From Centroscyllium fabricii (Eukaryota): 64,000 nt of DNA. The position numbers and the translations under genes are program-made. Of the stretch, positions 27,456-57,518 are shown one piece after another. Within the stretch, counting starts at the first letter, position 1; each line of letters begins with the position of its first letter. The notes below the pieces were generated by a model, which saw only the letters and a list, made by a program, of their open reading frames with translations, was not told the origin of the DNA and did not search any database. Where the stretch lies: the NCBI GenBank assembly GCA_051313645.2, contig JBNRSN020000001.1, positions 102,610,001-102,674,000 on the forward strand. Direction: 5' to 3'.

Positions 27456-28082
27456 TATGCTATATTGCTGCTGTGAGGATACATGGAAATCTTTGGTTGC
27501 TATTACCATTAAAGTGGATAACATGCCAGATTGAAATTCTAAAAGGTGTTCCAACAGCCCTGACACAGTAAACACCTCTCCAGATATTGAATGGGCTACA
27601 TTTCATCCACTTGGATGACAGAAACAGTTATCATACTTGCCAACCTGCTGAGAAAGGATTGTGGCTTCCTCATAGGAGGAGGCTGAGTGTGAAGGGTTTC
27701 CTTATGCCGAGAGTGCAGCAAGTCTCCCTGGCTGATAGAAACATAACTGATGCACATTATTCTGAAATTTCAGCTTTGATTATATCTAAAATGAAGTCTG
27801 AGACGTATACAGAAGTCAATGGCATCATCTCACCAAACCACAAACATCCTATTGGAAACCTTATGGAAGTTAGTGTCCCCACAAGTCTTACTGCTTATTG
27901 GACTGTTCCAGAAATATGCTGTGAAGATAAGTTATAGATGGATTCAATCTTTGCTCTTCCATCAGCATTGATACTTTAAGTATCTTGCTGTAGTTTTATT
28001 TTACTTCTGTATAATCCTAAATATTGCAAATAAATCTGATCTGTAGCTTTAAACTGAAGTTCAATCTTGTAGTTTTTGACTC

Positions 28083-29396
28083 TGTAAGCGGTTTTTATCC
28101 TAGCCCAATTGCTAGACGGACAATTCAAATCGCCCCCGCTTTATGGAAGTTCTATACCCGGGAATTATTATTCAGAGTGTAAATGGAATAATTCACGGAC
28201 AGGAATGTTTCAGTGAAAAATCAAACTTATATTTATTTGGTCTAACATACACTGGCTAAAACATGCACTACTGAATGAAATCACTGTCTCTGTGGAGAAT
28301 AAAATCCAGGTTACAAACAGCATACATACAGTACACAACTGAGGACTATAACAAGCAGTAATTCCCTTGTTGCTTTGGTGGACTCTAATTCCACCCCGCC
28401 AACGAACTATCCAGTCGCATAAGCCCCTTCGCCTGGCTGAACCAAACGAGGTGCCCACCCTTGGAATAGCCCCAAAAACTTCACTTCTGAGAAAACCCCT
28501 GAGCCCCTTACACCTCACCAAGCTTGCCTGAGATATCTGGTTACCAGCTTGGGAGAATTGAGACTATGCTTACCACCACACACGGTCGGTCTCGATCGCT
28601 TTGCTCAGCAGTTTCTTCCTCTGGTACTTCTTGTTAGGTTAATCTTGGTGGAGCGAGAAAGAGAGAGAGAGAGAATGGTGGAAAAGGATCTATCCTTATA
28701 GGATATTGAAAAAAGGTCATCGACCTGAAACATCAACTCTGCTCCTCTCTCCACCGATGCTCCCGGGCCTGCTGAGTTTCTCCAGCGATTTCTGTTGTTA
28801 TTTCAGATTTCCAGCATCCGCAGTATTTTGCTCTTGTATCTTTATAGGAGTCTGGCTACCTCTATCTTTCCCACCAAGCTTTAAAATCCTTTTGTCTCTA
28901 AGCACTCCAGAGCTTAATCAGTGGTGGGTCATCATCAGACCCATGAGTATTCCGTGATTGGACTAATGGCCCAAAGTCTGAGACATATTCTTGGTCTTTG
29001 TGTTGGGAAAAACAGGCTCCTCTTCGGCTGGCTAGGCCAGTGGGTTCATTGTTCTGCTTGTCCTCGGAGATGGAGTTGAGAAGTGCTTGTGCATATTAGA
29101 GTGGCTTTCCAATAGGTTCAAGTTAACGGCTGCCTTCGGGTCCCCAGCCCCTTCGTCAATGGCCCCCTTCCTTTTTCCAGGAATGTTGGGCGAACCCATA
29201 CATTCTGGATGACTGACAGTTCTTTTGTCACAGCCAACTGCCATGCATTCTCTGGAGTTTTAACAAACCAGTCCCCCACGCATCTGCACAGGGCGATCCC
29301 ACCACAGGGAAAACACCCTCAAAAAAATCACATAAAGTCCACAAAAATATTCTCAACTGAGTCCGTTCTTCAAACAGAGACATTGCAATCTCTTCA
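28083..29396 (-). repeat. ERV 3' LTR (contains a Penelope fragment)
   Basis: Collinear with 56342-57518; minus-strand AATAAA near 28232-28237; TATAAA-like box duplicated by the insert. Confidence 0.9.
28704..28836 (+). mobile_element. Penelope terminal fragment inside the 3' LTR
   Basis: Absent from the other LTR; near-perfect 13-bp duplication TATC(C/T)TTATAGGA; similar to 31745-31840. Confidence 0.8.
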
Positions 29397-30902
29397 GTCC
29401 CCCATTTGATGCTTTTCTTTCCACAAAGCATCACTCGACGAGAGAGCAAAAGTCTAAGTCTCCCACAAGGACGATAGCAAAATACTGCGGATGCTGGAAA
29501 TCCAAAATAACAAAAGAAAATGCTGGAAAAACTCAGCAGGCCAGGCAGCATCTGTGGAGAGAAAAACGGATTCAATGTTTCAGGTTGAAACCATTCTTCA
29601 GAACGGAGAATAAAAGGCAGGAAATAAAACAGATTAAAAGGCTGTTTGGAGGCTGGGAAATGGGAGAGGGGATGAAAGAAGAGACATTAAGAGGAATAGG
29701 ACAGACAAAGAAACAAACGATGGCTCTAGATGAAGTGTGAAATGTGCTGGGAGAGTGAAAGACAGCTGCCATGTGGGAGAGAGAAAATAAAGGGAAAAGG
29801 CACAAACCAAAAGTGCGGATAAAAAATATAAAAATATACTAGGGGCTGAGTTTATGATCTGAAATTGTTGAACTCGATATTGAGTCCAGAGGGCTGTAGA
29901 GGGCCTAATCGGAAGATGAGGTGCTGTTCCTCGAGCTTACGCTGAGCTTCCGTGAAACAATGCAAGAGGCCGCAGATGGTGAGGCCTGAGTGGGAATGGA
30001 ATGGTGAATTAAAATGACAAGCGACCGGAAGCTCGGGGTCACCCTTACGGTCTGAACAGAGGTGTTCCACAAAGTGGTCACCCAATCTGCGTTTGGTCTC
30101 CCCAGTGTAGAGGAGACCACATCGTGAGCAGCGAATACAGTATACTAAATTGCAAGAAGTACACGTAAATCGCTGTTTCACCTGGAAGGGGTGTTTGGGG
30201 CCCAGTTCACTTTGCCTCCAAATTCCACCCTACCCTCACCTTCACACAGTCCATCTCCGACTCTGCCCTACCTTTCCTCGACTTCTCCGTCTCCATCTCT
30301 GGGGATAGGTTATTGACCAACATTCACTAGAAGCCCACTGACTCCCACAGCTACCTGAACTACACTTCCTCCCACCCCGCTTCCTGTAAGGACTCTATTC
30401 CATTCTCCCAGTTTCTCCGTCTCTGCCGCGTCTGCTCTGACGATACCACCTTCCACACAAGTGCTTCCGACATGTCTTCCTTTTTCCTCAACTGAGGATT
30501 CCCCTCCACCGTGGTTGACATGGCCCTCGACTGGGTTCATTCTATCTCCCACACTTCAGACCTCACCCCTGCCCCTCCCTCCCGGAACCACGTTAGGGTT
30601 CCCCTTGTCCTCACCTTTCACCTCACCAGCCTTCACATTCAATGGATCATCCTCCATCATTTCCGCCACCTCCAACGTGATCCCACCACCAAATGCATCT
30701 TCCCCTCCACTCCCCTTTCAGCATTCTGTAGGGACTGCTCACTCCGAGACACCCTAGTCCACTCCTCTATCACCCCCAGCACATCTTGCCCTTCGCCCGG
30801 CACCTTCCCGTGCAAGCACTGGAGATGCAACACCTGCCCTTATACCTCTCCCCTTCCTACTGTCCAGGGCCCCAAACACCCCTTCCAGGTGAAACAGTGT
30901 AC

Positions 30903-31180
30903 TGTAGTGCATGCAGGCCTGAAGAACCACGCTGGAGACAGTGAGATCAGATAACACTCATTTAATAGTTTACACTGCAAGGACCAGGTAGCGAAGAGAC
31001 TGAGCTACCTGGAACAGGCATATTTAAAGGGCCCGCGGTTGGTGAGGTCACTGCCGGAAGTCCCGGTGACGTCATCACACCGGAAGTCACGGTGACGTCA
31101 TCACGCCGCCCAGTGGGCGGGCCCGTGTCCCGCGGTACGCCCGAGGCGGATTTGTTGGTCTTGGTGGGCGTGTCGCCACA
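30903..31180 (-). mobile_element. Solo LTR related to the CsRn1-type Gypsy at 51547
   Basis: Begins TGTGGCGACACGCCCACC on minus; 278 bp; TSD GTAC. Confidence 0.9.
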
Positions 31181-31745
31181 GTACTTGTACTTCTTGCAAT
31201 CTGGTATACTGTATTCGCTGCTAACGATGTGGTCTCCTCTATATTGGGGAGACCAAACGCAGATTGGTTGACCGCTTTGTGGAACACCTCCGTTCAATCG
31301 TAAGGGTGACCCTGAGCTTACGGTCGCTTGTCATTTCAATTCATCGCTCCATTCCCACTCAGACCTCACCGTCTGCGGCCTCTTGCACTGTTCCACGGAA
31401 GCTCAGCGTAAGCTCAAGGAACAGCACCTCATCTTCAGCTTAGGCACTTTACAGCCTTCCAGGCTCAATATCGAGTTCAACAATTTCAGATCATAACCTC
31501 AGCCTCTATTACATTTTTTATCCACACTTTTGGTTTGTGCCTTTTCCCTTTTTTTTCTCTCTCCCACATGGCCGCCGTCTTTTACTCTGCCAGCACATTT
31601 CACACTTCATCTGGAGCCATTGTTTTTTTTTACCTGTCCTATTCCTTGAATATCTCTTAATGTCTCTTCTTTCATCCCCTCCCCCATTTCCCAGCCCCCA
31701 AACTGCCTTTTAATCTGTTTCATTTCCTACCTTTTATTCTCAGTT

Positions 31746-31773
31746 CTGAAGAAGGGTTTCGATCTGAAACGTT
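31746..31773 (+). ncRNA. Minimal hammerhead ribozyme motif in the Penelope terminus
   Basis: CTGAAGA-stem II-GAAA followed by palindromic ACGT. Confidence 0.55.
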
Positions 31774-33569
31774 GACTCTGTTTCTCTCCACGGATGTTGC
31801 CTGGGCTGCTGAGTTTTTCCAGCATTTTCTTTTTGTTATTTCTCCCACAAGTGAAGCTGTTTCCCTGTTTTTATATTTTAAACCCCAGAACCGTGCCCCT
31901 TACTGCGTGTCATAGTTCCCTTCTACTGGGTCAAAACATCAGCAAAATGGTTTCTTAACACATTCAAACGGCTGGGTTCCAATTCCCACTGACAAACTTC
32001 AAGTCAAAATACAGAACATTAATAAGATCCACAGGACGTTACCAAAATGTCACTGCGCACATCACACAGTACAGCACTGACAGGTGGTAACACATTACAA
32101 CAATGCCACAGCACACATCCGCAATACAGAGTGTAAAACTATAACCAGAATACAAAACACTTGCTTACAGAACTTAGGTACATTACAAGTTTTGACAGGG
32201 AGAAACCATCATCAACACAAATCGAATTACACCTTTCCGGATCAATCTAACACCCCTTGCCATCGTACTTGGAGCATCTGGCTCTGTCGCCTGCAGCTGG
32301 TGTAAAACAAGTAGCTTACAAGCAACAATTGTATGATCACTAATGCATGGGAACAGATGCCGATCCAGGGGGGAATCTCTATACTCAGACCGATATCCCA
32401 CCATGGTGGTGAGACAATCCCCTTGATCTCCTCCCCCACTTCTACAGTCTTTTGCTCTAAAGTGTAAAAATGATTCTGGGAGAGCTCAACGGTCTTTATT
32501 AACTCAGTGAGGTGTTCCGGCACAAAAGGAATTGGGTACCCGAAATGCTCCACATAGTCCTGGAGATGCGTGAAGGTGTTCACAGTGAGGTGAATGGTCA
32601 AGGGTTCGGGGATGGGAATAATTCGCTCTTGTGCCACTTCAACTTCAGCCTTGGGTTTGAAGCAAGAACTGCTCTCGCTCACCGGACACCACATGTCCAT
32701 GTCCTGGCTGTATTGGTAGCAGAGCGCACTTGTGGTGAGATAGTATGTCCCACTCCCTACGTATGCTACCTGTGGAGGTCCATGACCTGGTGCCATCACT
32801 TCCATGTTGCAATTGATAGATTCCATGCCTGCAGAAGCAAACCCACATTCTGGTCGTGCAAATGCATTCAAGTGCTGGGGGCACAGTGTTACGCGTGCAC
32901 CGTGTCTCTGGCATCTGGAGAGGTCAGTGCCTGTCAGAGCATGTTCCAACTTTATCACACATGGCGGGACCACTTTAAAACGAACATGTACTCCTCCACG
33001 AATGATCCCAATATTCTCAAGCCGGTCGGGATGACCTGCCCATTACTGGCATCCACACTACAATTCCCATCACTGTATGGTTGGCCCACCCGCAATCTAC
33101 AGGCTAAACGAAGCTGGCACGGGCTTAATGAATTGTTATACGGGTGCAGCGTGGCGAGATGCTTGTTGCTTAACCATGAAGGGACGCGACCTTGCCTCAG
33201 GTCCTCCGGGTTACTGCGGCTCTCGCCCAGCATCCATGCTCCATACAACACACACTCATTCCGTGTAGCCTGCTCCGAAGCGTTACTAGCCTCCCGTATC
33301 AAATCATTAACACTTTTTGTGTGCCTCTGCAGCTCCCCAATGACCTCCTTTAAATGAATGGTCATTGCCTGGTCCTCATGAAGCTCTGAACCCGCCACTG
33401 TATTTGCTTCCCCTAGAATCTTACGCAGTTGGTTCTTTAACCCAGTGATCTGCATCTGGAGTTGTGCATCATCTATACTCTTAACAATACCCATTCCTGT
33501 CCTCAACGCTGTGGCTACATCGTTCCAGGTCCCTCTGCCTCCTGGACCGCACACTATCCTCAACATTCA

Positions 33570-33982
33570 GGGCAGCATGGTGGCCCAGTGGTTAGCACTG
33601 TTGTCTCACAGCACTGGAGACCCGGGTTCAAATCCAGCCTCAGGTACTATCTGTGTGGAGTTTGCACATTCTCCCCGTGTCTGCGTGGGTTTCGTCCGGG
33701 TGCTCCGGTTTCCTCCCACATTCCAAAGATGTGCGGGTTAGGTTGATTGGCCATGATAAATTGACCCTTAGTGTTAGGGGGATTGAATATGTGGGGTTAC
33801 GGGGATAGGGTGGGATATGTGTTGGTGCAGGCTCAATAGGGATCGAGGGATATGGGGAGAGGGCAGGGACAGGGTTCTGGGTTTGGATGATCAGCCATGA
33901 TCTCATTGAATGGCGGAGCAGGCTCGAAGGGCCGAATGGCCTTCTCCTGCTCCTATCTACTATGTTTCTATGTTTCTATGTT
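33570..33982 (+). mobile_element. V-SINE inserted in env
   Basis: Nearly identical to 2199-2602. Confidence 0.92.
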
Positions 33983-34644
33983 ATAAAGCTGGTCTTTCTC
34001 TACATTTCCATAGTCCCGTTCATAAAATTCCTGAAAAGTTGCTTTTAACAGAGCTTCATAAAGCTTCTTCGTCTTCCTTGGACACCACACAGGCTGGACT
34101 TCAGTCAGGTACAGGATCACGGATGCCACAATGTAGTGCATGCTCTAAAACAGCATTTTGTCAGTGGAGATTGACAGCAACCCATTCCCTGGACCCCTGG
34201 TGGTGGCGGGACACCCATCTACAGTCGTCTGTACCATCGGGGCTCTGGGTGGGGGCTTCCTGGTGTATGAGATGAGCTCTGTGGCGTTGATGGTGTTTGG
34301 GGGTTTTGGGATCACACAGGAGTCCACACTCCGATCCCAACCGATCCCATCCCCTGCGTCCTGACATCGCCTGCTAAACGCGATTGACACACCCGCTGGG
34401 CAGATCTTTTCTGAACCCCACGTTCACACATAAATCCCGTCCTCGGATTCCTACCACTTATCCCAACACACATTCACTCCTCCATGAGAACCCGTGATCA
34501 TCCGGTACGTGTCATTACTTAGTCTTTTCCAGTCAACTGTCTGGTCCCCTGTATCTGTGCTCAGTTCCCTGAGCCACCACCAACTTCCCAGTGGAATGTA
34601 TCCCCTACAGCTAAATGTGATGAACCTTTTGGAGTGGTTCACAC

Positions 34645-34892
34645 TGTACTGTTATTGTATATAGTTCTGTTTAATGTGTTTGTATATATCTTGTTATATA
34701 TCTGTTAATGCCTTTACCTTTCTGTGAGGACCTCTCCTGGCTGACCCCACATCTGGGTGCTAGTATAAATGAGTACGCTCCACCCACTGGTCTTTTGTAC
34801 TAGGCGGACTCATCGGGCATACGGTTCAGTTCTTTGTTAATAAAAGCCTCTTTATTAAGAAACTCGCTTCTGTCATAATTTGAGGCATCTCA
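34645..34892 (+). mobile_element. Solo LTR of a Gypsy family, inserted in env
   Basis: TG...CA ends, TATAAA and AATAAAAGCC as in the 37665 and 63405 LTRs; interrupts env; TSD unclear. Confidence 0.65.
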
Positions 34893-35191
34893 CTAAGGCA
34901 CACCCGTTTACCGTCTGTTACCCTAACCCGGGAGGTGGTAACCCCTATTCTCGGGCATGGGACGTATGCTTCAACATAGGTGAACCTGTCATGGTTGGGA
35001 TACAAGGTGGAAATTGACACCAGCCATCCAGGCCATCTTCCCTCATGGAGATAGACACTCACCCCATCCTTCGAACCACCTCCAGTGGTCATGGTCGGTC
35101 TGTCTCCACCGGTGCCCCTGTGACTCGTGCTGGCTTCAATCATAACAATCAGGACTACCATGGCTGACTTCATCTTGTTCTTAGGCATTCC

Positions 35192-35205
35192 CTGAAAAAC
35201 ATACA
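35192..35205 (-). promoter_or_regulatory. Candidate env splice acceptor
   Basis: GTATGTTTTTCAG|G immediately upstream of the env ATGs. Confidence 0.45.
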
Positions 35206-35891
35206 TAATGCAACATTGTCCTTTGGTCATGCCTCACCTTTTCAGACACAGCTACACACAATTGCATTTGGTATCCACAGCATACATGTAAATCCAAATT
35301 ATACAGACAAGCTAATGCAACAGACAGGAGAGAAATAAGTTATGTACAGCGCCACTCGTCTCCGGGTGGCCACGCTACGGGGGAAAAATTCAGTTGGTTT
35401 GCGTCTCCCATTAGTACCTTAAGAGGGCGCTAATGGAGTGCAAAACAACTAGCGCCCGGGTGAGGGGTTATCTGCGCCTCACGCGGAATTGACCAGACAT
35501 TTTGCGGCAATGCTAAACAATACCACCCGATCTCCTGTGCACGCAGATCTTGACGTCATTCAAGAGTGCAATGCATTTGTGATGCCCCAGAATGGAAATT
35601 GAGTGGCGCCCCCCTCCTCTCTGCCTGGCGCAACCAATGACAGGTAGACTGGAACATTTCCCAGTCGCTGTGGGGCTCGGGGAGGGGGGGGGGCTATTTA
35701 AAGGGGGCCTCTTCCTGGCTTTTGTGGTTGAAACTTTTGCACCACTCATTCTGAGAGAGAAAGAGATTTTGAGAGAGAGAAAGAGATGCTTCTGGATTGA
35801 GTCAATGCTGTCTGAAGTAGTTATGGCTTCTGACAATAACTTTGCAGGTACTTTGGTTTTTCATCTTCATTACTTTGATTGTCTAGATACT

Positions 35892-36902
35892 ATGGGGACT
35901 GCAATGAAAGGGGGCATCGTCCTGTGCCATCATATTCAGAGGGCACAGAGACACAGAGAGAGAGTGGCAATCATGGCCAGACCACCTCCTCTGTACAGGA
36001 GATCTTACCCTCCCAGGGTATTTCACCAACAATTCTCCTACATTAATATGTCTGAGGAGCAGTGTTTGCGATGGCTGTGCTTCAGCAAGGAGCTAGTCAC
36101 TGAGCTCTGCCACCTGCTGCAGCCAGATCTGCAGCCTCAACTGAGGAGCAGGATGTCTCTGTTGGTAGCACTGAAGATAACAGTGACTCTCAACTGTTAT
36201 GCCATCGGCTCATTTCAATCAGCTACTGGGGACATCGCCAATATCTCCCAGTTCGCGGTGCATTGCTGCATACATCAGGTCACAAATGCCCTCTATAAAA
36301 GGAGACGAGAGTACATTTTTTCCCCCATGACCCCGGACAAGCAACAAGAACGTGCAATGGGCTTTGCTAGGATAGCGAGCCTCCCCATGGTGCAGGGCGC
36401 CATCGACTGCACGCATGTGGCTTTGCGTATTCAGCATGAGAATGCCGAGGATTTCTGCAACCGAAAGGGGTTCTATTCCTTAAACGTTCAGTTGCTCTGT
36501 GACCACAGACAGCTGATACTCGCTGTCGATGCCCACTATCCTGGCAGCAGCCACAATGTCTACATCCTGCGACAGACTACTGTGGCAGAACTTTTCCAGG
36601 CACCGCATCACCCAGGTGGTTGGCTTCTCGGGGACAAGCGATATACACTGTGCACCTGGCTGATGACACCGCTCTGTATGCCTAACAACCCTGCTGAGCT
36701 GCGGTACAATGAGAGCCATCAAGCTAGCAGGAACATCGTTGAGCACACAATCGGCGTGCTGAAGCAACGGTTCCGCTGTCTGTGCTGCATGCTGCACAAC
36801 CTGGCAATCCTCAGGACCCAGCCAATGCCACCAGGCCTTGGAGCGCCACCAGAGGAGGAGGAGGAAGAGGAGGAGGAAGAGGAGGAGGATAATCATCAGT
36901 AG
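35892..36902 (+). CDS. Harbinger DDE transposase (open frame, small C-terminal deletion)
   Basis: AIDCTH, NRKGFYSLNVQLLCD, LLGDKRY, IVEHTIGVLKQRFRCL; lacks ~20 aa present in Harbinger 1 after RFR.L. Confidence 0.85.
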   Translation: MGTAMKGGIVLCHHIQRAQRHRERVAIMARPPPLYRRSYPPRVFHQQFSYINMSEEQCLRWLCFSKELVTELCHLLQPDLQPQLRSRMSLLVALKITVTLNCYAIGSFQSATGDIANISQFAVHCCIHQVTNALYKRRREYIFSPMTPDKQQERAMGFARIASLPMVQGAIDCTHVALRIQHENAEDFCNRKGFYSLNVQLLCDHRQLILAVDAHYPGSSHNVYILRQTTVAELFQAPHHPGGWLLGDKRYTLCTWLMTPLCMPNNPAELRYNESHQASRNIVEHTIGVLKQRFRCLCCMLHNLAILRTQPMPPGLGAPPEEEEEEEEEEEEDNHQ

Positions 36903-37664
36903 CACCAAGGCGGGAAGGAGGCCCGCAATGTAGAGTCTGGAAGGGCCGTCCGTCAACGGCTGATAGCAAGCCATTTCTAGGCCCCTTCTGAGGAAATGGC
37001 TTCTGCTATTGAGAACAACATGAATGAAACCAACCCGCAACCCCTAAGCCGGCCAAGGCAACAATGAATGCAAAGACCAAACATTTACATTTTGAATACA
37101 AAAACGTTTTAATTTTACAAACTATGTGTGTGTCATTTCCACCTGACAAATTAATAGAAAGAAACACAAAAAAAAGACATTAACATAACTGGTTCTCACA
37201 ACCTGGAGATAATGTCCAAAACACTAAAAAAAAATTGACCACGAACCTCAGCCTTTAATAAAAAATTAATAACATTTTGTCACACCTCCTACATTTTGCC
37301 CTTCAAGGGTGATCTCCTTCCCTTGCGCACTTACCCCTTCCCACCCTACAGCTCCTCCGTAATGGGACCCTAGTTGCTGCAGCAAGGCTGGTGGAAGGCT
37401 GCTGATTGTCACACCCTGAGACTGCAGATGCCCTTGAAGGACAGCATCGACCAGCTCTGGGCCTGGAGGGCTCGGCTACAGACTGCACCAGTTCTGCATG
37501 GGCGGCAGCAGTCTGGGTTACAGGCGGCTGCAAGTGCAGTGGAGAAGTGACAGTGGTGATAGCAGGAATGCTGTCATCTTGAGAGAGGACAGCAACTCCC
37601 TGCTCGACCAACACACCGCACTCCCACGGGGCAGCACTTCAGCATCTGGAGCAATCTACTGGAG

Positions 37665-43032: not shown

Positions 43033-43194
43033 AGCCATGGTTTTGCCTGATGTGCCTCCCACTGTTGAATAGCCCTTACTGTATGCAGGCATGGTGTTGC
43101 CTGATGTGCATCCCATAGTTGAATAGCCCTTACTATATGCAGCCATGGTCTTTCCTGATGTGCATCCCACAGTTGAATAGCCCTTACTGTATGT
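43033..43194. repeat. 3 x 54-bp tandem repeat in the Myb intron
   Basis: AGCCATGG...CCTGATGTGC...GTTGAATAGCCCTTACTGTATG repeated three times. Confidence 0.9.
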
Positions 43195-46069: not shown

Positions 46070-47265
46070 CACTTACTATCACTACGGCTCTTCACTCTGC
46101 ACTAAACCACCTGGATAGCAAAGATACATATATCAGAATGCTGTTTATTGACTACAGCTCAGCATTCAACACCATCGTCCCCAGCAAATTGTCTACCAAA
46201 CTCCTCACCCTCGGCCTGAACACCTCCCTCTGCAACTGGACCCTGGACTTCCTAACCAACAGACCACAGTCTGTGAAGTTAGGCAACCTCACCTCCCCCC
46301 ACCTTACCCTGAACACGGGGGCCCCACAAGGTTGTGTGCTCAGCCCCCTCCTCTACTCCCTCTTCACTCACGACTGTGCGGCTGTCCATGACTCCAACAC
46401 GATCATCAAGTTCGCGGATGACACCACGGTGGTTGGCCAGATCACCAACAACGACGAGTCAGCCTACAGGGATGAGATCCAGCACCTTGTGGGTTGGTGT
46501 GCCGACAACAACCTGGCACTGAACACCAAGAAAACGAAGGAGATCATAGTGGACTTCCGGAGGACTGGAAGCAGAAGACACACCCCCATCTTCATCCAAG
46601 GGGCTGAGGTGGAAAGGGTGTCCAGCTTCAAGTTCCTCGGGGTCCACATCTCGGAAGATCTCTCCTGGTCACTAAACACCTCCTCTCTGGTTAAGAAGGC
46701 CCAACAGCGCCTGTACTTCCTTAGGAAGCTGAAGAAAGCCAGGCTGGCATCCGGCATCCTCTCCAACTTCTACCGCTGCACAATAGAAAGCATACTGACA
46801 AGCTGCATCACTGTCTGGTATGGTAATTGCACTATCTCGGACCGGAAAACCCTGCAGCGGGTAGTCAAAACTGCCCAACGAATTACCGGTACACAGCTAC
46901 CGTCAGTGGAAAGCATCTACCTCAAACACTGCTTACGGAGGTCTATGAACATTATAAAAGACCCCACACACCCCAGCCACACTCTGTTCGCCCCTCTGCC
47001 CTCCGGGAGACGCTACAGAGCAATTTGCACCCGCACGACTAGATTTCAGAACAGCTTCTTCCCCAGGGCTGTCAGCCTCCTGAACTCTAAAAAGAAACTC
47101 CGGTACCTGCACGCCTGATAATGAACTTTACTGTATGCAATTTATTTATGTAATTTATTTATTTTGTTTACACTACTCTCGGGAGAGTCGAGTCTTCGTC
47201 TCGTTGTATTGTACTAGTACTCTGCAATGACAATAAAACTTGAATTGAATTGAATTGAATTGAAT
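46070..47265 (+). mobile_element. Rex1/Babar LINE, 5'-truncated
   Basis: [35 protein letters not shown]; AATAAA then (TTGAA)n tail. Confidence 0.92.
46138..47118 (+). CDS. Rex1 reverse transcriptase C-terminal part (open frame)
   Basis: 326-aa uninterrupted ORF with RT motifs. Confidence 0.85.
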
Positions 47266-49360
47266 AACCACTACACCACTGCCTCTGATGGGATAAAAGA
47301 GCTAGCGGGGATGCCCCATGAAGATTTGGGATCTCCTCATGGCCCAATGTGTGGCAAGCAGTTGCCTCTCACAATTGGAGTATCCCCTCTCTACATCTGT
47401 GAGGATTCTTAATGAGTATACCACAGGCCTCAGCTTGCCATGCCGCTCCTGGAGCAGTACTGTGCTCAAACTGTCCCCTGTGGCAGCTACCTCCAAAAAG
47501 AACTCCTTTCCCCCATCAATCTCTCCTGAAGCCGGTGTGGTTTACAGATCTCCCTTCAGATGTCTAAAAGCTGCCATGCAGTCCTCATCCCACTCCCAGC
47601 CCACTCCCTTGTGGAGGAACCAGAATAGAGGAGCTGCCGTAGTGGCATAGTCCTCTATGAAATCACTGCAATACCCTGTGAGTCACAGGAAGGATCTTAC
47701 CCCCATTAATGTGGTCGGGGCAGGTAACTCTTGTACTGCCTTCCCCCTCACCTCATCGATGGCCCTCTCCCCAGCACGCACGGTCAGCTCGAGGAATTTT
47801 ACTTCCTGCTGGCCGATCTGTGCTTTCTTGGGATTAACCTTGAACCCAGCTTCCTTTAACAGACTCAGCAGCTCAGCCAGCAGGGGGTGATGCTCCTCCC
47901 CCCTCATTGGAGAACAAAAGCAGGTCATCCACATACTGCCCAATCTGCTGTGGTCTGCTGAACCCTTTTAAACAGTTGGCCATACATTGGTGGAAAATAG
48001 AAGGACTGTTATGAAACCTTTGAGGAAGGCAGGTCCATGTGTACTGCTGACCCTTGAAAGTGAATGCAAACTTATACTGATCCTCCCATTTGAGAGGGAT
48101 AGACCAGAATCAGTTTGAAATGTCCAGCACCGTGAATGCTTTTGCAGATGCTGGGATACTCCCGATCAGGTCGGCTACAGTTGCGACGGTGGGGCACAGG
48201 CTGGGATGTTCTTGTTAAGAACCCAATAGGCCACAGTGGCTCTCCACAAATTGTCCGATTTCCTAACCGGCCAAACCGGAGTGTTCACATGGGTCGCTAT
48301 GGGTCTCAACACACCCTGCTCAACCTGTGGTACCAAAGCCATCTCTAAATCTGCCTCTGCCTCTCTGGGGAAGTTGCACTGTTTCTGTGGTCGGGCCATG
48401 GGGTCTCCACCTACTCTGACCTCCACCCCTATTACCCACCCACAGTCAGCTTGTGTGTAGCGAATGCTGCGAGATATGCTCGCACATCCGCTATATACTC
48501 CGCCGGGGTAGAAGTGAACAAAAGTTCAAGGTCATAACTACCCTTGGGCTTCATCATACACACGGGTCCCTTGCCTTGCTTCCCTGGTATACCTACCACC
48601 TCCTTCTCCTTTCCCTTGCATACTGGCCCCCAAAGACAGTGATTCTGGAAATACACCAATATCTTGTGGGACAGTATGAAGTCTGACCCCAAAATGACTA
48701 TTCCCTCCCGCTCCCACCACATCAGGTCACATTTCCACTCCGTATGGAGTGTGCCCAGATCGATGGCTAGCAGAACGGAGAAAGACCCAGCCTGTTCGTT
48801 CCCGGTGAGCCCTATTAATTATATGGGACCCCGCTCGATAGAGGTGATGGGGTCAGGTTATCCACATAGACAATGGAGCTTGAAGCTCCAGTATCCAGCA
48901 GATAGGTCCCTTGCACCTTCACCACCCCCATCTTCATGCACAGACTCTTCCAAGCATCATTACTTAGAGGGCACAGGTAAACGGGCTGAGAAGCCCCTAG
49001 TCATGGGTCGGGATTGTGCGGGGTGGATGGGTCTACGCTGCCCACTGCTGCGTCCACCCTACCCTGCCCTGCCGGAAAGACCGTGCGGAGAGCAGCCACT
49101 AATACCGCAAATGGATCAGTGCTGCTTCCCACCACAGCTGCGGCTTTCTGCACTGGAGGATCCCCTTTCCCACTGCTTTTGTCAGAGACTGGGCAATCTT
49201 TCCTCCAGTGCCCTTTACTCCCGCACCCATAACAACACTGCTTCTTCTCTGAGCTACCCCCTTCCTGGCGCCACTCTCTTCTAACGTTGCCTCCACTAGG
49301 CTTTAACTCGTGTACTCTGCCCTTTGGGTTGTCATCCTCACCTCTACCATTCTTAAAAGA

Positions 49361-49844
49361 TGTGGAAGTGCCGGTGTTGGACTCGGGTGGACAAATGCAA
49401 GAAGTCATACAACACCAGGTTATAGTCCAACAGTTTTATTTGAAATCACAAGCTTTCGGAGTGCTGCTCCTTCCTCAGGTGAAAGAGAAGTTAATTTAAA
49501 GACAGCACATATACAAGGGAGAGAGCAATCTAATCTCTCCCACATCACACTTCAGCAGAGAGACATACAGAGCAGACAAGGGTGTTTTATCATATTTTAA
49601 AATATTAATCAGGCACCAGCCTGAGATCAATGAGGTATAATCACAAAGGGTCAAATGTTGCAGTGCCTGCTCTGTATGTCTCTCTGCTGAAGTGTGATGT
49701 GGGAGAGATTAGACTGCTCTCTCCCTTGTATATGTGCTGTCTTTAAATTAACTTCTCTTTCGTCTGAGGAAGGAGCAGCGCTCCGAAAGCTTGTGATTTC
49801 AAATAAAACTGTTGGACTATAACCTGGTGTTGTGTGACTTCTTG
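49361..49844. mobile_element. Palindromic Penelope-terminus element inside gag
   Basis: ~185-bp inverted arms (~49394-49579 vs ~49663-49848); TSD CATTCTTAAAAGA (49348-49360, 49845-49857). Confidence 0.85.
49764..49793 (+). ncRNA. Minimal hammerhead ribozyme motif (mirror copy on minus ~49450-49478)
   Basis: CTGAGGA-a-GGAGC-agc-GCTCC-GAAA then palindromic AAGCTT. Confidence 0.7.
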
Positions 49845-51115
49845 CATTCTTAAAAGAGAGAGTTAACTGCCAGATCTCACCCACTTCTGTGGTCTGGGAA
49901 TCCCTGGAATTGAACCACCCCTCTGCTTTGGCCTTGATCCTGGGCAGGCTGTTTGCCACCAGGGTCCTCAGTCAATGAGCCCTAGGCTCCCCCTGCAGCT
50001 GCGCCCTGTCGGGCACCCCCACACAGGCGCTCCAGTAGATGGGCCAATGCCTGTCCATGAAAGCCTGTTGTGCCTCCCCAGCTGACTGCAGTGTCCTTTC
50101 CACTCGGGAGAAGGGACTTCCATCATTGAGGCCCATAGCCTCTAGGATGTCATCCTTTTATCTGCTCTAATGTACCCTGCTCCCTCTTGCTATCCGCTGA
50201 GAGCGACTGGTACAACCTACTATCCAGGGAATATAAAATTAATTTGTCTGTCTCAGCTTTGTTACAATTATTGATCCCCCCCAACTGCTCCACATCCATA
50301 AAATGGACAGATGGATCCCCTGTGCTGGTCAGTTTGGTCAGGTTAGAGACCATTGCCTGCAGTTGGGGGATCGTATATGGGACCAAGAAGTCATTCTGCA
50401 GTGCTCCTTGCTTTTGACAGTCTATGGGCGCACTGTATTTCCGCTGCCGGACAGGGCACTTGGGTCCTGGTCCCAGCACTTTGGGTGGTGGTCGAGCATC
50501 TTCCTCTGCCTCACATTACTCCTTATCTCCCTCCAGCTCTTTCTCATCTACCCGGGCCATTTCCAGAGCAACCAAGCAGACTTTCCCTTTGGCCTTAGAT
50601 AGAGCATCAGTCAAATTTCGGATCTGCTACTGCCAATGACCACGATTACCCTTAGCAAACTCTCCATTGCTGGAAACTCTGTATGCCACCTGAATATCCT
50701 TCAACTGCTCTCCCAGCACCTTTACCTCACTCGACAAGTGAGCGTTCTCCTCCCTAACCATCCTCTTGTTCCCCTTTGCCTCAGTTACCTGGCATTGCAG
50801 GAACTCCTTATGGTTACAGAAGGTTTCCTTTTGGCTTATTCTTCCCTGTTTCTCATCCCTGAGCTCCATGCATAACCTGCTCCCTACTACAGCCCTTGCA
50901 TCTGACTGTGCCTCTGACTCCCTGGGCTCTGCCTCTAACTTAGCAACCTGTCTATCTAGCAGTTGTACTTGTCTTTGTAGACAGACAAGCCATATCGCCT
51001 TTTCAATGCTGCGCCTTTGCTCCTTGCCCTCCATCCATTCTGCCGTTGCATCCACCAGACGCTCAGCACACAATAAGCCTAGCACCCACTTCTTAGTGAC
51101 GTTAACCTTCTTAAA

Positions 51116-51433
51116 TATAGAAACATAGAAGATAGGAGTAGGCCATTCGGCCCTTCGAGCCTGCTCCGCCATTCAATGAGATCATGGCTGATCATCCAAA
51201 CACAGTACCCTGTCCCTGCCTTGTCCCCATATCCCTCAATCCCTATCAAGCCTGCATCAACACATATCCCACCCTATCCCCGTAACCCCACATATTTAAT
51301 CCCCCTAACATCAAGGGTCAATTTATCATGGCCAATCAACCTAACCCGCACATCTTTGGTCTGTGGGAGGAAACCGGAGCACCCGGAGGAAACCCACGCT
51401 GACACAGGGAGAATGTGCAAACTCCACACAGAT
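51116..51433 (-). mobile_element. 5'-truncated V-SINE inside gag
   Basis: V domain and tail present, tRNA head absent. Confidence 0.88.
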
Positions 51434-51519
51434 AAACACTTATGACGAAACCCTTTCCACTATTTTGGATCTTTCACCAGAAGCGCTGTCCATGACTGAT
51501 TTACACTCCTTTAACCCAG

Positions 51520-51537
51520 GTCCTGCTGCTGGTTGCC
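51520..51537 (-). promoter_or_regulatory. ERV primer-binding-site candidate
   Basis: TGGCAACCAGCAGCAGGA a few bases after the LTR end once the Gypsy is removed; loosely tRNA-Ser-like. Confidence 0.5.
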
Positions 51538-51921
51538 AAGAGATGTTGTGGCGACACGCCCACCGGCAGCCACGAACCCGCGCTGGGAAGGCTGCAAAGC
51601 GGCCCCGCCCGTCGGAGGACGCACGGACTTCCCCGACGTGATGACGTCACCAGGTGGCCAGCCGGCAGTGACGTCCCCAGCCGCGGGACCTTTAAATACC
51701 TGAGCGCCAGGTGGCTCAGTCTCTTTCTCTCCACCTGGCCCTAGTTGTAACAAGCAGTATAATAAAAACTCTCCTTCTAACCTCTCTGTGTCCAGCGTGG
51801 TCCTTCAGCCTTGCAGGCCTCAACACTGGTGACCCCGATACCTGAGACGATTCTCAGGTGAACAATGAAGCAGCCACTGCAGGACTGAGGGCCAAGCTGC
51901 CGCAGCCGAATCGCTACCACC

Positions 51922-53067
51922 ATGCCAGCAGCAAACGACTCAGCACGCCAAAGCAGACGGGGCCAAGTTTACCTCCCGGTCCCAACCATACCACAATTCT
52001 GGGAGCTCCGTCCAGCGGCTTGGTTTCGCAACACCGAGAACACCTTCCGCATCCATGGCGTGCAGGGAGACGACCGCTACAGCCTGCTCTTCGCAGCCCT
52101 CGCACAGTCCACCATCGACAGAATGTGGGACACCATCGAGGAAGACACTTCTGCTGGCAGGTACGAATCGCTAAAGGCCGCGCTGCTCGCAAAATTTACC
52201 CCAACCATTTTCGAGCGCGATTGCCAGGTCATTAACCTCCCCGACCTGGGAGATGCAGACCCCACCGACTTGTGGGCCCAGTTTGAGGCGCTCAATCGCG
52301 ACTCGGACACCCTTAAGCGCGCCCTCTACCTCCTTAAGCTGCCGCCCTCCATCAGACCGACACTGACGGTCTTGGAGCACCTCTCAAACAGGCAGCTAGC
52401 TCAGGAGGCAGACAAGCTCATTAAGGCCGAGCGCACCCGCGCCACCATGCACCGCCACGCTGCCGCTCAACAAGAGCAGCACCACCCACAACCCCGGCCC
52501 CAACTCAGAGCCGCGCGGACCCACAAAAAGCCACGCACCGCGGCAACCGGCTGGTGCTACTACCATACCAGGTTTGAGGCCAAAGCGCAGCGCTGCGTTC
52601 CGCCCTGCAACTTCAAACCCCAAACCTGCCCCAGCCCCACCATGTGCGTCGGCCGCTCCGGAGCGCTGCTCTTCGTTAAAGACAGTGTCTCAGGCCTCCG
52701 TTTCCTCTGCGACACAGGCGCGCAGCACAGCATCGTGCCAGCCTCCCCCGCAGAATCCAAGCAGGGCACCCAAGGCCCACCACTCGAAGCCGCAAACGGC
52801 TCCGAGATACTCACGTTCGGTACCCGCCAGCTTACCATTAAACTAGCAGGCCACAGGTATACGTGGGACTTCATCACCGCGCAGGTTAACACGCCCCTAC
52901 TCGGAGCCGATTTTCTGTGCGCCCACGGGCTCCTTGTCGATGTTACCCGGCGCCGCCTGGTCGACATCCAAATCATGTCGACCATTCCGTGCTCCACAGC
53001 CCCAGCACACCAGACCCACGCGGCAGCTCACTGCCGGGCCCGCAACTGTCGGACATTCTGTGTGTAA
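51922..53067 (+). CDS. Gag-protease
   Basis: CHCC motif WCYYHTRFEAKAQRCVPPC; protease FLCDTGAQHS; LLGADFL. Confidence 0.9.
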   Translation: MPAANDSARQSRRGQVYLPVPTIPQFWELRPAAWFRNTENTFRIHGVQGDDRYSLLFAALAQSTIDRMWDTIEEDTSAGRYESLKAALLAKFTPTIFERDCQVINLPDLGDADPTDLWAQFEALNRDSDTLKRALYLLKLPPSIRPTLTVLEHLSNRQLAQEADKLIKAERTRATMHRHAAAQQEQHHPQPRPQLRAARTHKKPRTAATGWCYYHTRFEAKAQRCVPPCNFKPQTCPSPTMCVGRSGALLFVKDSVSGLRFLCDTGAQHSIVPASPAESKQGTQGPPLEAANGSEILTFGTRQLTIKLAGHRYTWDFITAQVNTPLLGADFLCAHGLLVDVTRRRLVDIQIMSTIPCSTAPAHQTHAAAHCRARNCRTFCV

Positions 53068-53081
53068 TCGAAATGTGTGTC

Positions 53082-55853
53082 CGCAACTCCGACACGTACG
53101 CCACGCTGCTCGCCGAGTTCCCCACCCTAACCAACCCCACCTTCACAGCCCGCTCCGCCAAGCACGGCGTAGAGCACCACATCACCACCACAGGCCCCCC
53201 GGTCCACGCCCACGCACGCAGGCTGGACCCGGCCAAGCTAGAGATCGCTCGAGCCGAGTTCCACATCATGGAACAGCTCGGCATCATCCGCCGCTCCAGC
53301 AGCCCCTGGGCCTCCCCCCTCCACATTGCCCCCAAACCCGATGGCGGCTGGCGCCCCTGCGGAGACTACCGCCGCCTCAACAACGCCACCACCCCGGATA
53401 GGTACCCAGTCCCCCACATCCAGGATTTTTCCGTGAGGCTAGCCGGCTGCACGGTCTTTTCAAAGATCGACCTCGTGCGGGGCTACCACCAAGTTCCAGT
53501 GCACCCGGCGGATGTCCCTAAGACAGCCGTCATCACCCCATTCGGCCTATTCGAATTTCTCCGGATGCCCTTCGGACTCAAAAACGCGGCCCAGGCTTTC
53601 CAGCGCCTCATGGACTCAGTCCTCCGGGACCTCCAGTTCACATTCGTCTATCTTGACGACATCCTGGTGGCCAGCGCTTCCCCCCGGGAACACCTCATCC
53701 ACCTCAGAACCCTTTTTAAATGCCTGGCCGAGCACGGCCTCATATTAAGCCCCTCCAAGTGCCGATTCGGCCTCGAGGCTATTGACTTCCTCGGCCACCA
53801 CATCTCCCACACCGGGGCCATACCCCTGCCCTCCAAGGTGCAGGCGGTCCAGGAATTCCCCCGCCCTCACTCCATCAAGGGGCTGCAGGAATTCCTTGGA
53901 ATGGTTAATTTTTACAACCGTTTCATCCCCGGCGCAGCCGCCCTCATGGCCCCCCTCTACCAGGCCACCCACGGGCAATCCAACAAGACCGCGGTCGAGT
54001 GGACGGCCGAAGCCGCCACCACTTTCACCGCAACCAAAACGGCCCTTGCCAAAGCCACCCTCCTCAGCCACCCCAGGCCCAACGCCAGAGTAGCCCACAC
54101 CACCGACGCCTCCGACCACGCTGTCGGAGCAGTCTTCGAGCAGTGGTCGGGCGACTCATGGCAACCACTGGCCTTTTTCAGCCGCCGCCTCCGGCCCCCA
54201 GAGGCCAAGTACAGCGCCTTCGATAGGGAGCTACTCGCTCTCTACCTCGCAGTGCGCCACTTCCGCTTCCTTTTGGAGGGCCGCCACTTTACAGCATTTG
54301 TGGACCACAAACCACTAGTCTCCGCAATGGCTAAGCTCTCCGAACCCTGGTCGGCCAGGCAGCAGCGCCAGCTCGCGGCCGTGTCCGAGTTCACGACCGA
54401 CATCCAGCACATTGCTGGCCGCGACAACGTGGTCGCCGACTGCCTCTCACGACCCGCCATTCACAAGCCCAACCCCGACCACCCCCCAACCCCAGCCACC
54501 AACCGCGCCTGCGCACACTGCTGCGCATTCCCAACCACCAACACTGTCCAGACCGCGGTCGACTACGTCAAAATGGCGGCCGACCAACTCAGCGATCCCG
54601 ACCTCCTCGACCCCACCAACAAACTTCCCGGCCTACTCTTAGCCACCGTAGCACACGGACCCACAGCCACGGGGGTCCGCTGCGACGTCACCCTACCCCA
54701 ACCCAGGCCCGTGGTGCCCCCCGCGTGGAGGCAGCACATCTTCCAGACCCTCCACGGCCTCTCCCACCCCGGCGTCCGCGCATCCACCAAGCTCATCTCT
54801 GCGCGATTCGTTTGGCGCGGCCTAAAACAAGATGTCCGCGCCTGGACCACCTCGTGCAATGCCTGCCAGCGAGCCAAGGTGCACAAACACATCAAAGCAC
54901 CACTCCAACCAATCGTCATCCCAGCCAGACGCTTCAGCCACGTGCACGTCGACCTGGTTGGACCACTACCCCCATCACGTGGACACTCGTACCGCCTCAC
55001 AATGGTCGACCGCACCACCCGCTGGCCTGAAGCGGTCCCCCTCAACACGACCACCACCGCCGAACTGGCCAGGGCCTTCATCGCCACATGGGTCGCCCGC
55101 TTCGGCATCCCCAACGACATTACTTCAGACAGGGGCCCCCAATTCACTTCAACTCTATGGTCAACCATCGCTCACGACCTTGGGGTAACCCTGCACCGAA
55201 CCACTGCCTACCACCCGCAAGCCAACGGCCTCTGCGAACGGTTCCACCGAACTTTTAAAACATCCCTGCGGGCCAGCCTCCAGGACGCAACCTGGACGGA
55301 CCGCCTGCCCTGGGTAATGCTCGGCCTCCACTCAGCGGCCAAAGAAGATCTACACGCCTCGGCAGCCGAACTCGTTTACGGCCAACCACTAACGGTACCA
55401 GGCGAGTTCGTCGCAGAAACAAGCGAACCCTGGTCGGCCGAGCTCTGCCTCAGGGAATTCAACAACCAGGCAGCAGAATTCAAACCACTTCCGGTGGCCC
55501 GCCACGGTCACCCGGCGACACGTGTCCCCGATGCCATTCAGGATGCCAAGTATGTGTTTGTCCGCCATGACTCACACAAAACACCGCTGCAGGCACCGTA
55601 CGACGGGCCATTCAGAGTGCTTCGGGCGGGACACAAAACGTTTGACATTCAAATGGGCAACAGAACTGAGACCGTATCCATTGACCGGCTCAAACCAGCA
55701 CACGTAATGGCGGGCGAGACAACAGTCCCCGCACAACCACCTAAACGCGGCCGCCCTACCGCACCAAAACCCACCCACACTCCCACACAGACCAACAAGC
55801 AACACATCACACGTGCCGGCCGTACCATCAGGCCACCTAAGCGCCTCGCCTGA
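53082..55853 (+). CDS. RT-RNase H-integrase (open frame, -1 relative to gag-pro)
   Basis: GDYRRLN, YLDD, TDASD, HHCC zinc finger, SDRGPQF, GPF. Confidence 0.92.
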   Translation, partial: RNSDTYATLLAEFPTLTNPTFTARSAKHGVEHHITTTGPPVHAHARRLDPAKLEIARAEFHIMEQLGIIRRSSSPWASPLHIAPKPDGGWRPCGDYRRLNNATTPDRYPVPHIQDFSVRLAGCTVFSKIDLVRGYHQVPVHPADVPKTAVITPFGLFEFLRMPFGLKNAAQAFQRLMDSVLRDLQFTFVYLDDILVASASPREHLIHLRTLFKCLAEHGLILSPSKCRFGLEAIDFLGHHISHTGAIPLPSKVQAVQEFPRPHSIKGLQEFLGMVNFYNRFIPGAAALMAPLYQATHGQSNKTAVEWTAEAATTFTATKTALAKATLLSHPRPNARVAHTTDASDHAVGAVFEQWSGDSWQPLAFFSRRLRPPEAKYSAFDRELLALYLAVRHFRFLLEGRHFTAFVDHKPLVSAMAKLSEPWSARQQRQLAAVSEFTTDIQHIAGRDNVVADCLSRPAIHKPNPDHPPTPATNRACAHCCAFPTTNTVQTAVDYVKMAADQLSDPDLLDPTNKLPGLLLATVAHGPTATGVRCDVTLPQPRPVVPPAWRQHIFQTLHGLSHPGVRASTKLISARFVWRGLKQDVRAWTTSCNACQRAKVHKHIKAPLQPIVIPARRFSHVHVDLVGPLPPSRGHSYRLTMVDRTTRWPEAVPLNTTTTAELARAFIATWVARFGIPNDITSDRGPQFTSTLWSTIAHDLGVTLHRTTAYHPQANGLCERFHRTFKTSLRASLQDATWTDRLPWVMLGLHSAAKEDLHASAAELVYGQPLTVPGEFVAETSEPWSAELCLREFNNQAAEFKPLPVARHGHPATRVPDAIQDAKYVFVRHDSHKTPLQAPYDGPFRVLRAGHKTFDIQMGNRTETVSIDRLKPAHVMAGETTVPAQPPKRGRPTAPKPTHTPTQTNKQHITRAGRTIRPPKRLA

Positions 55854-56341
55854 GGCGACACGGGCAGAGCATAGACGGCCCGCCACAACACCATCTTTCG
55901 AACCACGGAACAGCACACAACACCTGCCGGCCACAACACCAGGCCATTGCGGCAAACTGTCGGACATTCTGTGTGTAATCGAAATGTGTGTCTGCTCTCC
56001 TTTTTGTCTCCCTCTCCTCTAGGAAACTACACTTCCCCTCGCGGATTCTGGGGGGGAGCTGTGTGGCGACACGCCCACCGGCAGCCACGAACCCGCGCTG
56101 GGAAGGCTGCAAAGCGGCCCCGCCCGTCGGAGGACGCACGGACTTCCCCGACGTGATGACGTCACCAGGTGGCCAGCCGGCAGTGACGTCCCCAGCCGCG
56201 GGACCTTTAAATACCTGAGCGCCAGGTGGCTCAGTCTCTTTCTCTCCACCTGGCCCTAGTTGTAACAAGCAGTATAATAAAAACTCTCCTTCTAACCTCT
56301 CTGTGTCCAGCGTGGTCCTTCAGCCTTGCAGGCCTCAACAA

Positions 56342-57518
56342 TGTAAATGGTTTTTGATCCTAGCCCAGTTGCTAGACGGACGGTCCAAATCGCCCCCGCC
56401 TTACGAAGGTTCTATGCCCGGAAATTATTATTCAGAGTGTAAATGGAATAAGTCACGGACAGGAATGCTTCGCTGAAAAATCAAACTTATATTTAATTGG
56501 TCGAACATACACTGGCTAAAATATGCACTATAAACAAAATCACTGTCACTGTGGAGATTAAAATCCAGGTTACAAACAACATACATACAGTACACAACTG
56601 GGAACTATAACCAGCAGTAATTCCCTTGTTGCTATGGTGGACTCTAATTACACCCCTACCAATGAATTACCCAGTCGCATAAACCCCTTCACCTGGCTGA
56701 ACCAAACAAAGCTCCCACCCCAGAATAGCCCAAAAACTTCACTTCTGAGAAAAACCCTGAGCCCCTTACACCTCACCCAGCTCACCTGGGATATCTGGTT
56801 ACCGGCTTGGGACACTCGAGACCATGCTTACCACCACACATGGTCGGTCTCATTTGCTTCGCTCAGTGGATTCTTCCTCTGATACTTCTTGTTAGGTCGA
56901 TCTTGCTGGAGCGATCTTGGTGGAGCGAGAGAGAGAAATAATGGTGGAAAAAGATCTATCTTAATAGGAGTTTACCATCTTCCCCCATCTTTCCCACCAA
57001 TCTTTAAAATCCTTTTGTTTCTCAGCACTCGGGTGCTTAATCAGTGCTAGGTCATCATCGAACCCATGAGTATTCCATGATTGGATTAATGGCCCAACGT
57101 CCGGGGCATATCTTTGGTCTTTGTGTTGGGAAAAACTGGCTCCTTTTCGGCTGGCTGGGCAAGTGGGTTCATTGTTCTGATTCCCTTCTGAGATGGAGTT
57201 GTGAAGTGCTTTTGCATATTAGAGTGGCTTTCTATTAAGTTCAAGTTCAACAGGTGCCTCGGGCTCCTCAGCCGCTCGTCAATGGCCCCCTCCTTTTCCT
57301 AGGACTGTCGGGCGAACCCATACATTCTGGATGACTGACAGTTCTTTTGTCACAGCCAACTGCCATGTATTCTCTGGAGTTTAAACAAACCAGCCCCCCA
57401 CGCATCTGCACAGGTTGATCCCACCACAGGGAAAACACCATCAGAAAAATCCCATAAAGTCCACAAAATTATTCTCGACTGAGTCCATTCTTCAAACAGA
57501 GGCTTTGCGATCTCTTCA
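56342..57518 (-). repeat. ERV 5' LTR
   Basis: 1177 bp, collinear with 28083-29396; followed by TSD ACTC. Confidence 0.9.

Follow-up and report, generated by a model that had tools for sequence, protein, structure and literature searches.

A 64,000-nucleotide window (positions 102,610,001 to 102,674,000 of contig JBNRSN020000001.1, assembly GCA_051313645.2) holds on its minus strand, between 28083 and 57518, a dead provirus riddled with later inserts. Its reverse transcriptase (RT) lies inside the canonical retroviruses and outside the lokiretroviruses (Loki). Its long terminal repeats (LTRs), target-site duplication (TSD), gene order, family membership, and broken frames were all observed directly. 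The reading that we favor with reasonable confidence goes further: the element likely sits in a shark or ray genome, likely belongs to the deep region of snakehead retrovirus (SnRV) and clade Huo, and likely kept an ancestral F-type Env together with an RNase H from the Loki side. A preliminary description had proposed a lokiretrovirus-like provirus, apparently in a cartilaginous fish. The lokiretrovirus label fails, and the remaining value of the locus lies in what it can say about the origin of the retroviral Env.

Anatomy of the provirus

Two LTRs (28083 to 29396 and 56342 to 57518) aligned end to end, formed one long direct repeat pair in a self-comparison of the window, and were both bounded by TG...CA. 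The tetranucleotide ACTC was present at both outer flanks, a match for which chance alone gives 1 in 256. The left (3′) LTR is interrupted by a 133-bp insert, which is accompanied by an 8-bp duplication. Between the LTRs, we counted 151 differences over 1,167 aligned sites (93 transitions and 58 transversions), for a p-distance of 12.9% and a Kimura two-parameter distance of 0.143. The divergence is a little higher than the earlier estimate of about 1 in 10, which covered the first ~190 bp, and the old integration proposed at that time agrees with this distance. In the element sense, the LTR at 56342 to 57518 lacks AATAAA and has ATTAAA and TATAA adjacent near position 1022 to 1032 of 1,177.

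A Pfam scan of 29 frames found zf-CCHC, RVT_1, RT_RNaseH (the tether), RNase_H, and an SH3-like integrase (IN) tail in this order on the minus strand, while the protease, the IN core, and env were located by tblastn with relatives. The overall layout is gag-pro-RT-tether-RNase H-IN-env, about 10.5 kb minus inserts. Summed from the comparison with other copies, this ~10.5 kb is common to them and the remaining ~18.9 kb is nine later inserts, two of which hold nested elements. Self-comparison, Pfam, and tblastn therefore uphold the layout first described, namely, a pair of ~1.18-kb LTRs, an ACTC TSD, and these genes in this order with about 19 kb of inserts. In tblastn, Pol was broken into five pieces with 12 stops inside high-scoring segment pairs, which partly overlap and cross frameshifts. 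Approximately 355 bp of integrase is absent from the window copy and present in two other copies. Because every gene is broken, the window copy is dead. Clean TSDs were not found for several inserts, and Rfam and ARAGORN scans of the window gave no matches. The features of the locus are as follows.

28079 to 28082, no strand: left copy of the TSD, ACTC (flank match)
28083 to 29396, minus: 3′ LTR, ~1,181 bp plus the 133-bp insert near 28704 to 28836 (self-alignment)
29397 to 29420, minus: purine-rich tract adjoining the 3′ LTR, likely the polypurine tract, similar in three other copies (copy comparison)
29470 to 31840, no strand: insert with an inverted pair, a GIY-YIG-like frame (presumptively Penelope-like), an 11-bp duplication, and a nested solo LTR near 30900 to 31180
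31840 to 33570, minus: C-terminal part of env (heptads, Cys-rich region, transmembrane segment) and 3′ untranslated stretch, frameshifted
33570 to 33980, plus: insert, a tRNA-headed repeat resembling short interspersed elements (SINEs), within the Env cleavage-site region
33980 to 35380, minus: N-terminal part of env, interrupted by stops and, near 34615 to 34890, by a 280-bp insert resembling a solo LTR
35380 to 43930, no strand: insert, a Harbinger-type DNA transposon (DDE_Tnp_4 and a Myb/SANT frame) containing a Gypsy element at 37662 to 42099
43930 to 44880, minus: integrase core and tail, with stops, zinc-binding part missing
44880 to 45700, minus: second RNase H (PF00075), following the tether and containing a single in-frame stop
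45700 to 47285, no strand: insert with 134 bp of duplicated RNase H DNA, a SINE-like piece, and an RT fragment of a long interspersed element (RVT_1, ALKBH8_N)
47285 to 49000, minus: protease, RT, and tether, with several stops and frameshifts
48997 to 49003, minus: gag stop TGA followed by CTAG, predicted to act as a read-through signal; pro shares the gag frame
49000 to 51115, minus: gag, with a likely coiled-coil N terminus (by eye), capsid region, and one CCHC knuckle, broken
Near 49360 to 49845: palindromic 480-bp insert inside gag
51115 to 51432, minus: insert, a SINE-like repeat in the leader
51433 to 51546, minus: leader with the primer-binding site (PBS), likely for tRNA-Arg(TCG), 16 of 18 bases matching with one extra base (hand alignment)
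51547 to 56340, plus: insert, a young Gypsy element between the 5′ LTR and the PBS
56342 to 57518, minus: 5′ LTR, 1,177 bp
57519 to 57522, no strand: right copy of the TSD, ACTC (flank match)

The provirus belongs to a high-copy family

We searched the 7.2-Gb genome for the family and scored 40 candidates per probe. The first look gave 1,371 candidates for the LTR piece, 4,665 for RT, and 2,133 for env, which are candidates rather than copy numbers. Among the 40 scored per probe, identity was 83 to 88% for the LTR piece, 87 to 92% for RT, and mostly 80 to 91% for env. We then fetched five 20-kb loci, chosen because two matches lay close together. Both LTRs surrounded gag-pol-env in two of the five, and the other three showed parts in the same order, so that the LTR pair does accompany the same genes elsewhere and a chance pairing of the LTRs is rejected. 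Each of the five fetched copies has its own inserts. The window provirus is a single broken member of this family, whose high copy number allows the family to be dated and mapped. One env piece (L043, 753 to 1343) is ~67 to 70% like the rest and stands beside a typical one; it may represent a second subfamily or a recombinant copy.

LTR distances in two other copies were 0.064 and 0.116. For the window copy, the age comes to 33 million years at a substitution rate of 2.2e-9 (PMC7947760) and to 325 million years at 2.2e-10, the rate given for a shark (PMC4422223). With the two published rates this far apart, the copy is old but undated. Outside this genome, IMG/VR held no relative of the family, and a metagenome scan returned only distant Pol relatives, with an Env relative at none of 80 loci.

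RT lies inside the canonical retroviruses

Since the window RT is frameshifted, trees were built from its 96-aa single-frame core and the natural frames of two other copies. P0093 was matched to the SnRV row of Dataset S3 of Wang and Han, and eight Loki anchors were matched by eye to rows or motifs of the same data set (e.g., P0184 to Loki-Lro, P0192 to Loki-Lca, and P0018 to Loki-Lch). A Gypsy element from the window (23416 to 27456) served as the outgroup. In a FastTree of 310 rows, the element and SnRV shared a clade of 30 rows (0.967) that was nested in the canonical retroviruses (0.993), and Loki stood apart (1.0). IQ-TREE with 52 chosen rows and 264 columns placed the element within the canonical retroviruses at 100/99 and the eight Loki anchors in a clade of their own at 100/99. 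Approximately unbiased (AU) tests rejected grouping of the element with Loki (p = 0.0075), with epsilon-like rows (p = 4e-8), and with Gypsy (p = 0.017); grouping with its kin and SnRV was not rejected (p = 0.47).

Over 88 columns, the window RT core was 55% identical to SnRV, 55 to 60% to amphibian, coelacanth, and unnamed kin, and 32 to 42% to Loki. The nearest RT kin were coelacanth and frog endogenous retrovirus (ERV) Pol proteins at 47 to 51% and the Logan protein P0064 at 76%. The motifs LDISN-stop-FWS, LPQRFHNSP, and QYVDD are present. The AU tests support the earlier view that RT is retroviral and not Gypsy-like, and add that it is not epsilon-like either. At the site of PFGY in Loki rows, the element reads LPQxFHNSP, and it lacks the Loki WP-M/V motif. 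Membership in the lokiretroviruses is rejected on the placement of RT outside the Loki clade, the AU result, and the missing Loki RT motifs. An assignment to Gypsy (Metaviridae) is rejected on its AU result and the presence of a second RNase H, and one to epsilon or class I elements on its AU result and an Env without CX6CC. The likely position of the element is the deep region of SnRV and clade Huo.

Resemblance to Loki in RNase H and integrase

The RNase H tree (35 rows, 143 columns) showed a 99/99 split that set the element with Loki and kin, away from SnRV and class I. On the side of the element were six Loki-type rows, three of them verified by RT, and seven kin from coelacanth, frog, turtle, and unnamed sources; no foamy row was in the tree. 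Within it, the Loki rows formed a separate clade (100/99) that did not include the element. The AU test rejected grouping of the element with SnRV (p = 0.039) and did not reject grouping with Loki (p = 0.31). For IN, the closest relative of the element scored 171 to 212 bits to full-length Loki-type INs versus 122 to SnRV. Here again, a separate Loki clade (100/99) excluded the element, and grouping with Loki was not rejected (p = 0.27). Of the Loki-like character first proposed, the features in RNase H, IN, and Env are supported or suggested; RT does not share it.

Env is likely F-type

In other copies, Env has ~330 aa before an RQRR cleavage site, then heptads, a Cys-rich region, and a transmembrane segment ~400 aa after the site, with no CX6CC. 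When Env of another copy was compared by eye with that of Loki-Str, ordered motifs were shared: R-[IV]-P-S-[YW]-L; Y-R...N-[IV]-G...H-V...P-P; C...C-P...C-G; and C...Q-V...G...V-x-T. In Atlas, Env of another copy listed Gypsy env, Baculo_F, and Fusion_gly clusters first (0.93 to 0.95), a recognition below the Atlas bar. From these motifs and rankings, we believe that Env is likely F-type (measles-type). Such an Env would not be diagnostic for Loki because foamy Env also has an F core (PMC11468914). A survey of anamniote Envs covers the gamma and beta types (bioRxiv 2021.11.23.469661).

Gag stop, primer site, and proposed life cycle

Of 29 loci examined, 5 could not be aligned at the gag stop. 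The stop was TGA in all 24 aligned copies, and it read TGACTAG in 17 of them and in the window. Gag and pro share one frame with the stop between them in 7 of 10 scored copies. UGA-CUAG is a tested read-through signal in mammalian genes and also occurs in alphaviruses, while murine leukemia virus (MuLV, or MLV) uses a pseudoknot (PMC4132726). Given the conserved TGA-CTAG and the known motif, we infer that Gag-Pro-Pol would be made by reading through the UGA-CUAG stop, a mode unlike the pseudoknot-driven one of MuLV. Our literature search found no paper linking UGA-CUAG read-through to retroviruses.

The PBS resembles the 3′ end of host tRNA-Arg(TCG) genes. It matched at only 9 to 12 of 18 positions without a gap and, by hand count in five copies, at 14 to 18 of 18 with one extra base; two of six pattern loci were called as tRNA-Arg(TCG). 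This tRNA is likely the primer, as judged from the base matches. About 5 bases separate the LTR end from the primer site in all five copies (window 51520 to 51546, L065, L068, L069, and L072). This is one base more than tRNA-Arg(TCG) predicts, and the true primer may therefore be another isodecoder. The 3′ pattern of tRNA-Arg(TCG) had 87 genome matches, with long arrays in G000 at C811:24.5-24.7 Mb (~1.9 kb apart) and C922:4.0-7.9 Mb.

As we picture its life cycle, the virus would have entered cells by a furin-cleaved class I fusion protein expressed from a spliced env message. Reverse transcription would have started from tRNA-Arg at the PBS and from the purine tract, and integration would have produced a 4-bp duplication. 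Spread in the germ line presumably lasted a long period (LTR distances of 0.06, 0.12, and 0.14 in three copies). The window copy may then have decayed into a neutral landing ground for nine later insertions.

Host

The C-terminal half of Env matched only two of 534 candidate proteins, from sawshark (76%) and skate (56%). The sawshark gene model fuses 150 aa of Env to a CDHR5-like cadherin, and the skate model consists of a 516-aa Env that has a gap inside it. These two models (P0001 and P0002) are either annotation artifacts or an exonized or co-opted env. The host acetylcholinesterase scored 966 bits to Torpedo chains, 777 to snake, and ~680 to mouse and human, the organisms being those that we take the PDB identifiers to denote. 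Host cadherin exons (CDHR5) were 59 to 76% identical to the sawshark protein in a comparison run without a control. Taken together, these matches make the shark or ray host suggested earlier likely.

Weighing the alternatives

Several observations pull against the reading that we favor. Foamy, ERV-L, beta, and lenti rows are absent from all of the trees, and the names "gamma" and "epsilon" are motif-based labels. The sister relation to SnRV is an open fork in the RT IQ-TREE, the window RT core is 52% identical to one epsilon-like row, and the RT-plus-tether scores of the Loki anchors (185 to 249 bits) overlap that of SnRV (229 bits), with kin at 361 to 393. The tree for RNase H is short and lacks a root, and the backbone of the IN tree is open. 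Env had no Pfam match to E = 1, PF00523 included, and no PDB profile match to E = 10. Its AlphaFold models reached a pLDDT of 34 from a single sequence and 39 from 50 rows, values below what a fold search requires; the fusion peptide shows only weak hydrophobicity, and the C-terminal half of the window Env alone gave class III (rhabdo/gB-type) look-alikes in Atlas. Both the acetylcholinesterase and the CDHR5 host comparisons lacked a bony-fish control.

The main rival is a recombinant in which gag-pro-RT from the SnRV region acquired RNase H, IN, and env as one block, the donor being a lokiretrovirus or a virus close to it. All three Loki-like modules are indeed contiguous 3′ of RT, the AU tests allow the element beside Loki for both RNase H and IN, and domain swaps are common in retroviruses (PMC7947760). 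However, Loki closes into a clade of its own in both of those trees, and the pre-cleavage part of Env is ~330 aa versus ~120 in Loki-Str. Moreover, coelacanth, frog, and turtle kin also fall on this side of the RNase H split, which would place any swap very far back in time. We consider a recombinant unlikely and prefer ancestral retention because the coelacanth and frog kin share this RNase H side. A good deal less probable is a class III element related to foamy viruses (clade Tu) or to ERV-L. A 78-aa RT piece matched foamy RT best among solved structures, and the F core of foamy Env and the single group in which Wang and Han place Loki and foamy RNase H (PMC7947760) fit this idea as well. 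Still, the RT-tether frame scored 133 to 141 bits to foamy chains, below MLV at 159 to 165 and far below kin at 361 to 393. The Gag of the element contains a CCHC knuckle, a feature that spumaviruses and ERV-L are described as lacking (PMC2717909), gag and pro form one frame with a stop between, and the foamy motif rows differ by eye.

Slightly less probable again is a true lokiretrovirus, which would be the first in a cartilaginous fish. The dual RNase H, the Loki-side RNase H, the IN scores, the Env motifs, and the long LTRs would all suit it, and over RT plus tether the bit scores to Loki do not fall below those to SnRV; the published screen covered only six chondrichthyan genomes, none of them positive (PMC7947760). 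The 100/99 placement of RT outside Loki, with its AU result, and LPQxFHNSP in place of PFGY without WP-M/V speak against it, as does the stop between gag and pro, where Loki-Str is annotated with a single smc-gag-pol frame (PMC7947760). Because RT lies outside Loki, the extension of the Loki host range proposed earlier is not shown.

We return to the reading of a canonical retrovirus with retained ancestral modules. As a tentative step beyond it, the element may represent an undescribed deep canonical lineage of sharks, rays, coelacanth, and frogs, with an ancestral F-type Env, a Loki/foamy-type RNase H, a Loki-like IN, and UGA-CUAG read-through between Gag and Pol. Wang and Han left the origin of the retroviral Env open with four scenarios (PMC7947760). 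The combination of a canonical RT, a likely F-type Env, and an RNase H from the Loki side can separate such scenarios, and our searches of the open-licence literature found no description of it. If true, and taken with Loki and foamy viruses, it would make an F-type Env ancestral to all retroviruses, with gamma- and beta-type Envs as later replacements (scenario 3 of Wang and Han).

Inserts and neighboring repeats

The locus is a clear example of nested transposon history. The insert names Penelope-like, Harbinger, and SINE rest on Pfam matches and on general anatomy, and we take them as presumptive. The youngest insert is the Gypsy element at 51547 to 56340, with LTRs identical at 279 of 279 positions, an ATGT duplication, and an open 987-aa pol frame; it is possibly still active. 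The solo LTR at 30909 to 31180 is ~69% like the LTR of this element. At 35380 to 43930, the Harbinger-type transposon, the Gypsy element within it (37662 to 42099; LTRs identical at 250 of 264 positions, 95%), and the provirus make three nesting layers. A third Gypsy element, the tree outgroup, lies just left of the provirus with 139-bp LTRs that are 93% alike and minus-strand RT and IN frames. The window also holds a CT-rich 63-bp tandem array of 16.5 copies (18280 to 19321) and a degenerate G-rich 19-bp array (60735 to 61531).

Comparison with known systems

Wang and Han base the definition of Loki on an RT clade that is sister to the other retroviruses as a whole, a dual RNase H, and an Env related to the F proteins of Mononegavirales, PF00523 (PMC7947760). 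Further Loki traits are an RNase H of group I, together with foamy viruses, and an IN related to CGIN1/NYNRIN. The element resembles Loki (PMC7947760 and PMC9040795) in its tether and second RNase H, in the side of the RNase H split on which it falls, in IN similarity, in an RxxR-cleaved Env with ordered motifs shared by eye, and in LTRs of >1 kb. An LTR-gag-pol-env-LTR layout with a tether and second RNase H was found in the element, although the layout itself is common to all retroviruses. It differs from Loki in RT, in the UGA-CUAG gag stop, and in an Env with a much longer pre-cleavage part, a weak fusion peptide, and no PF00523 match. As for the smc-like coiled-coil gene of some Loki members, the Gag N terminus appears coiled-coil by eye, with no Pfam match. 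Foamy viruses would offer a comparable arrangement, their Env having an F fold into which a large surface domain is inserted (PMC11468914); the low RT scores, the CCHC knuckle, and the single gag-pol frame are different.

SnRV-related ERVs are known from elephant shark (CmiERV lineage I) (PMC4422223), clade Huo spans all vertebrate groups (PMC6001957), and most chondrichthyan ERV RTs are clade III (PMC11089739). Cartilaginous-fish proviruses from the SnRV/Huo region are thus of an already known kind (PMC4422223, PMC6001957, and PMC4977317). The element may or may not be of the same family as CmiERV-I, in a comparison that did not include the Envs of SnRV and CmiERV-I. It is like SnRV and clade Huo in its RT motifs, its RT among canonical retroviruses, its gag and pol in one frame, and its presence in a cartilaginous fish, and like SnRV in one Gag zinc knuckle and a coiled-coil Gag N terminus, both given as SnRV features in PMC2717909. 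It differs from SnRV in an RNase H that does not group with it, in IN scores closer to Loki, and in an RT identity of 46 to 55%. The coelacanth and frog ERV Pol proteins annotated as "NYNRIN-like" (P0066, P0068, P0070, and P0072) and P0064 are the nearest RT kin and share both the domain order and the RNase H side of the element.

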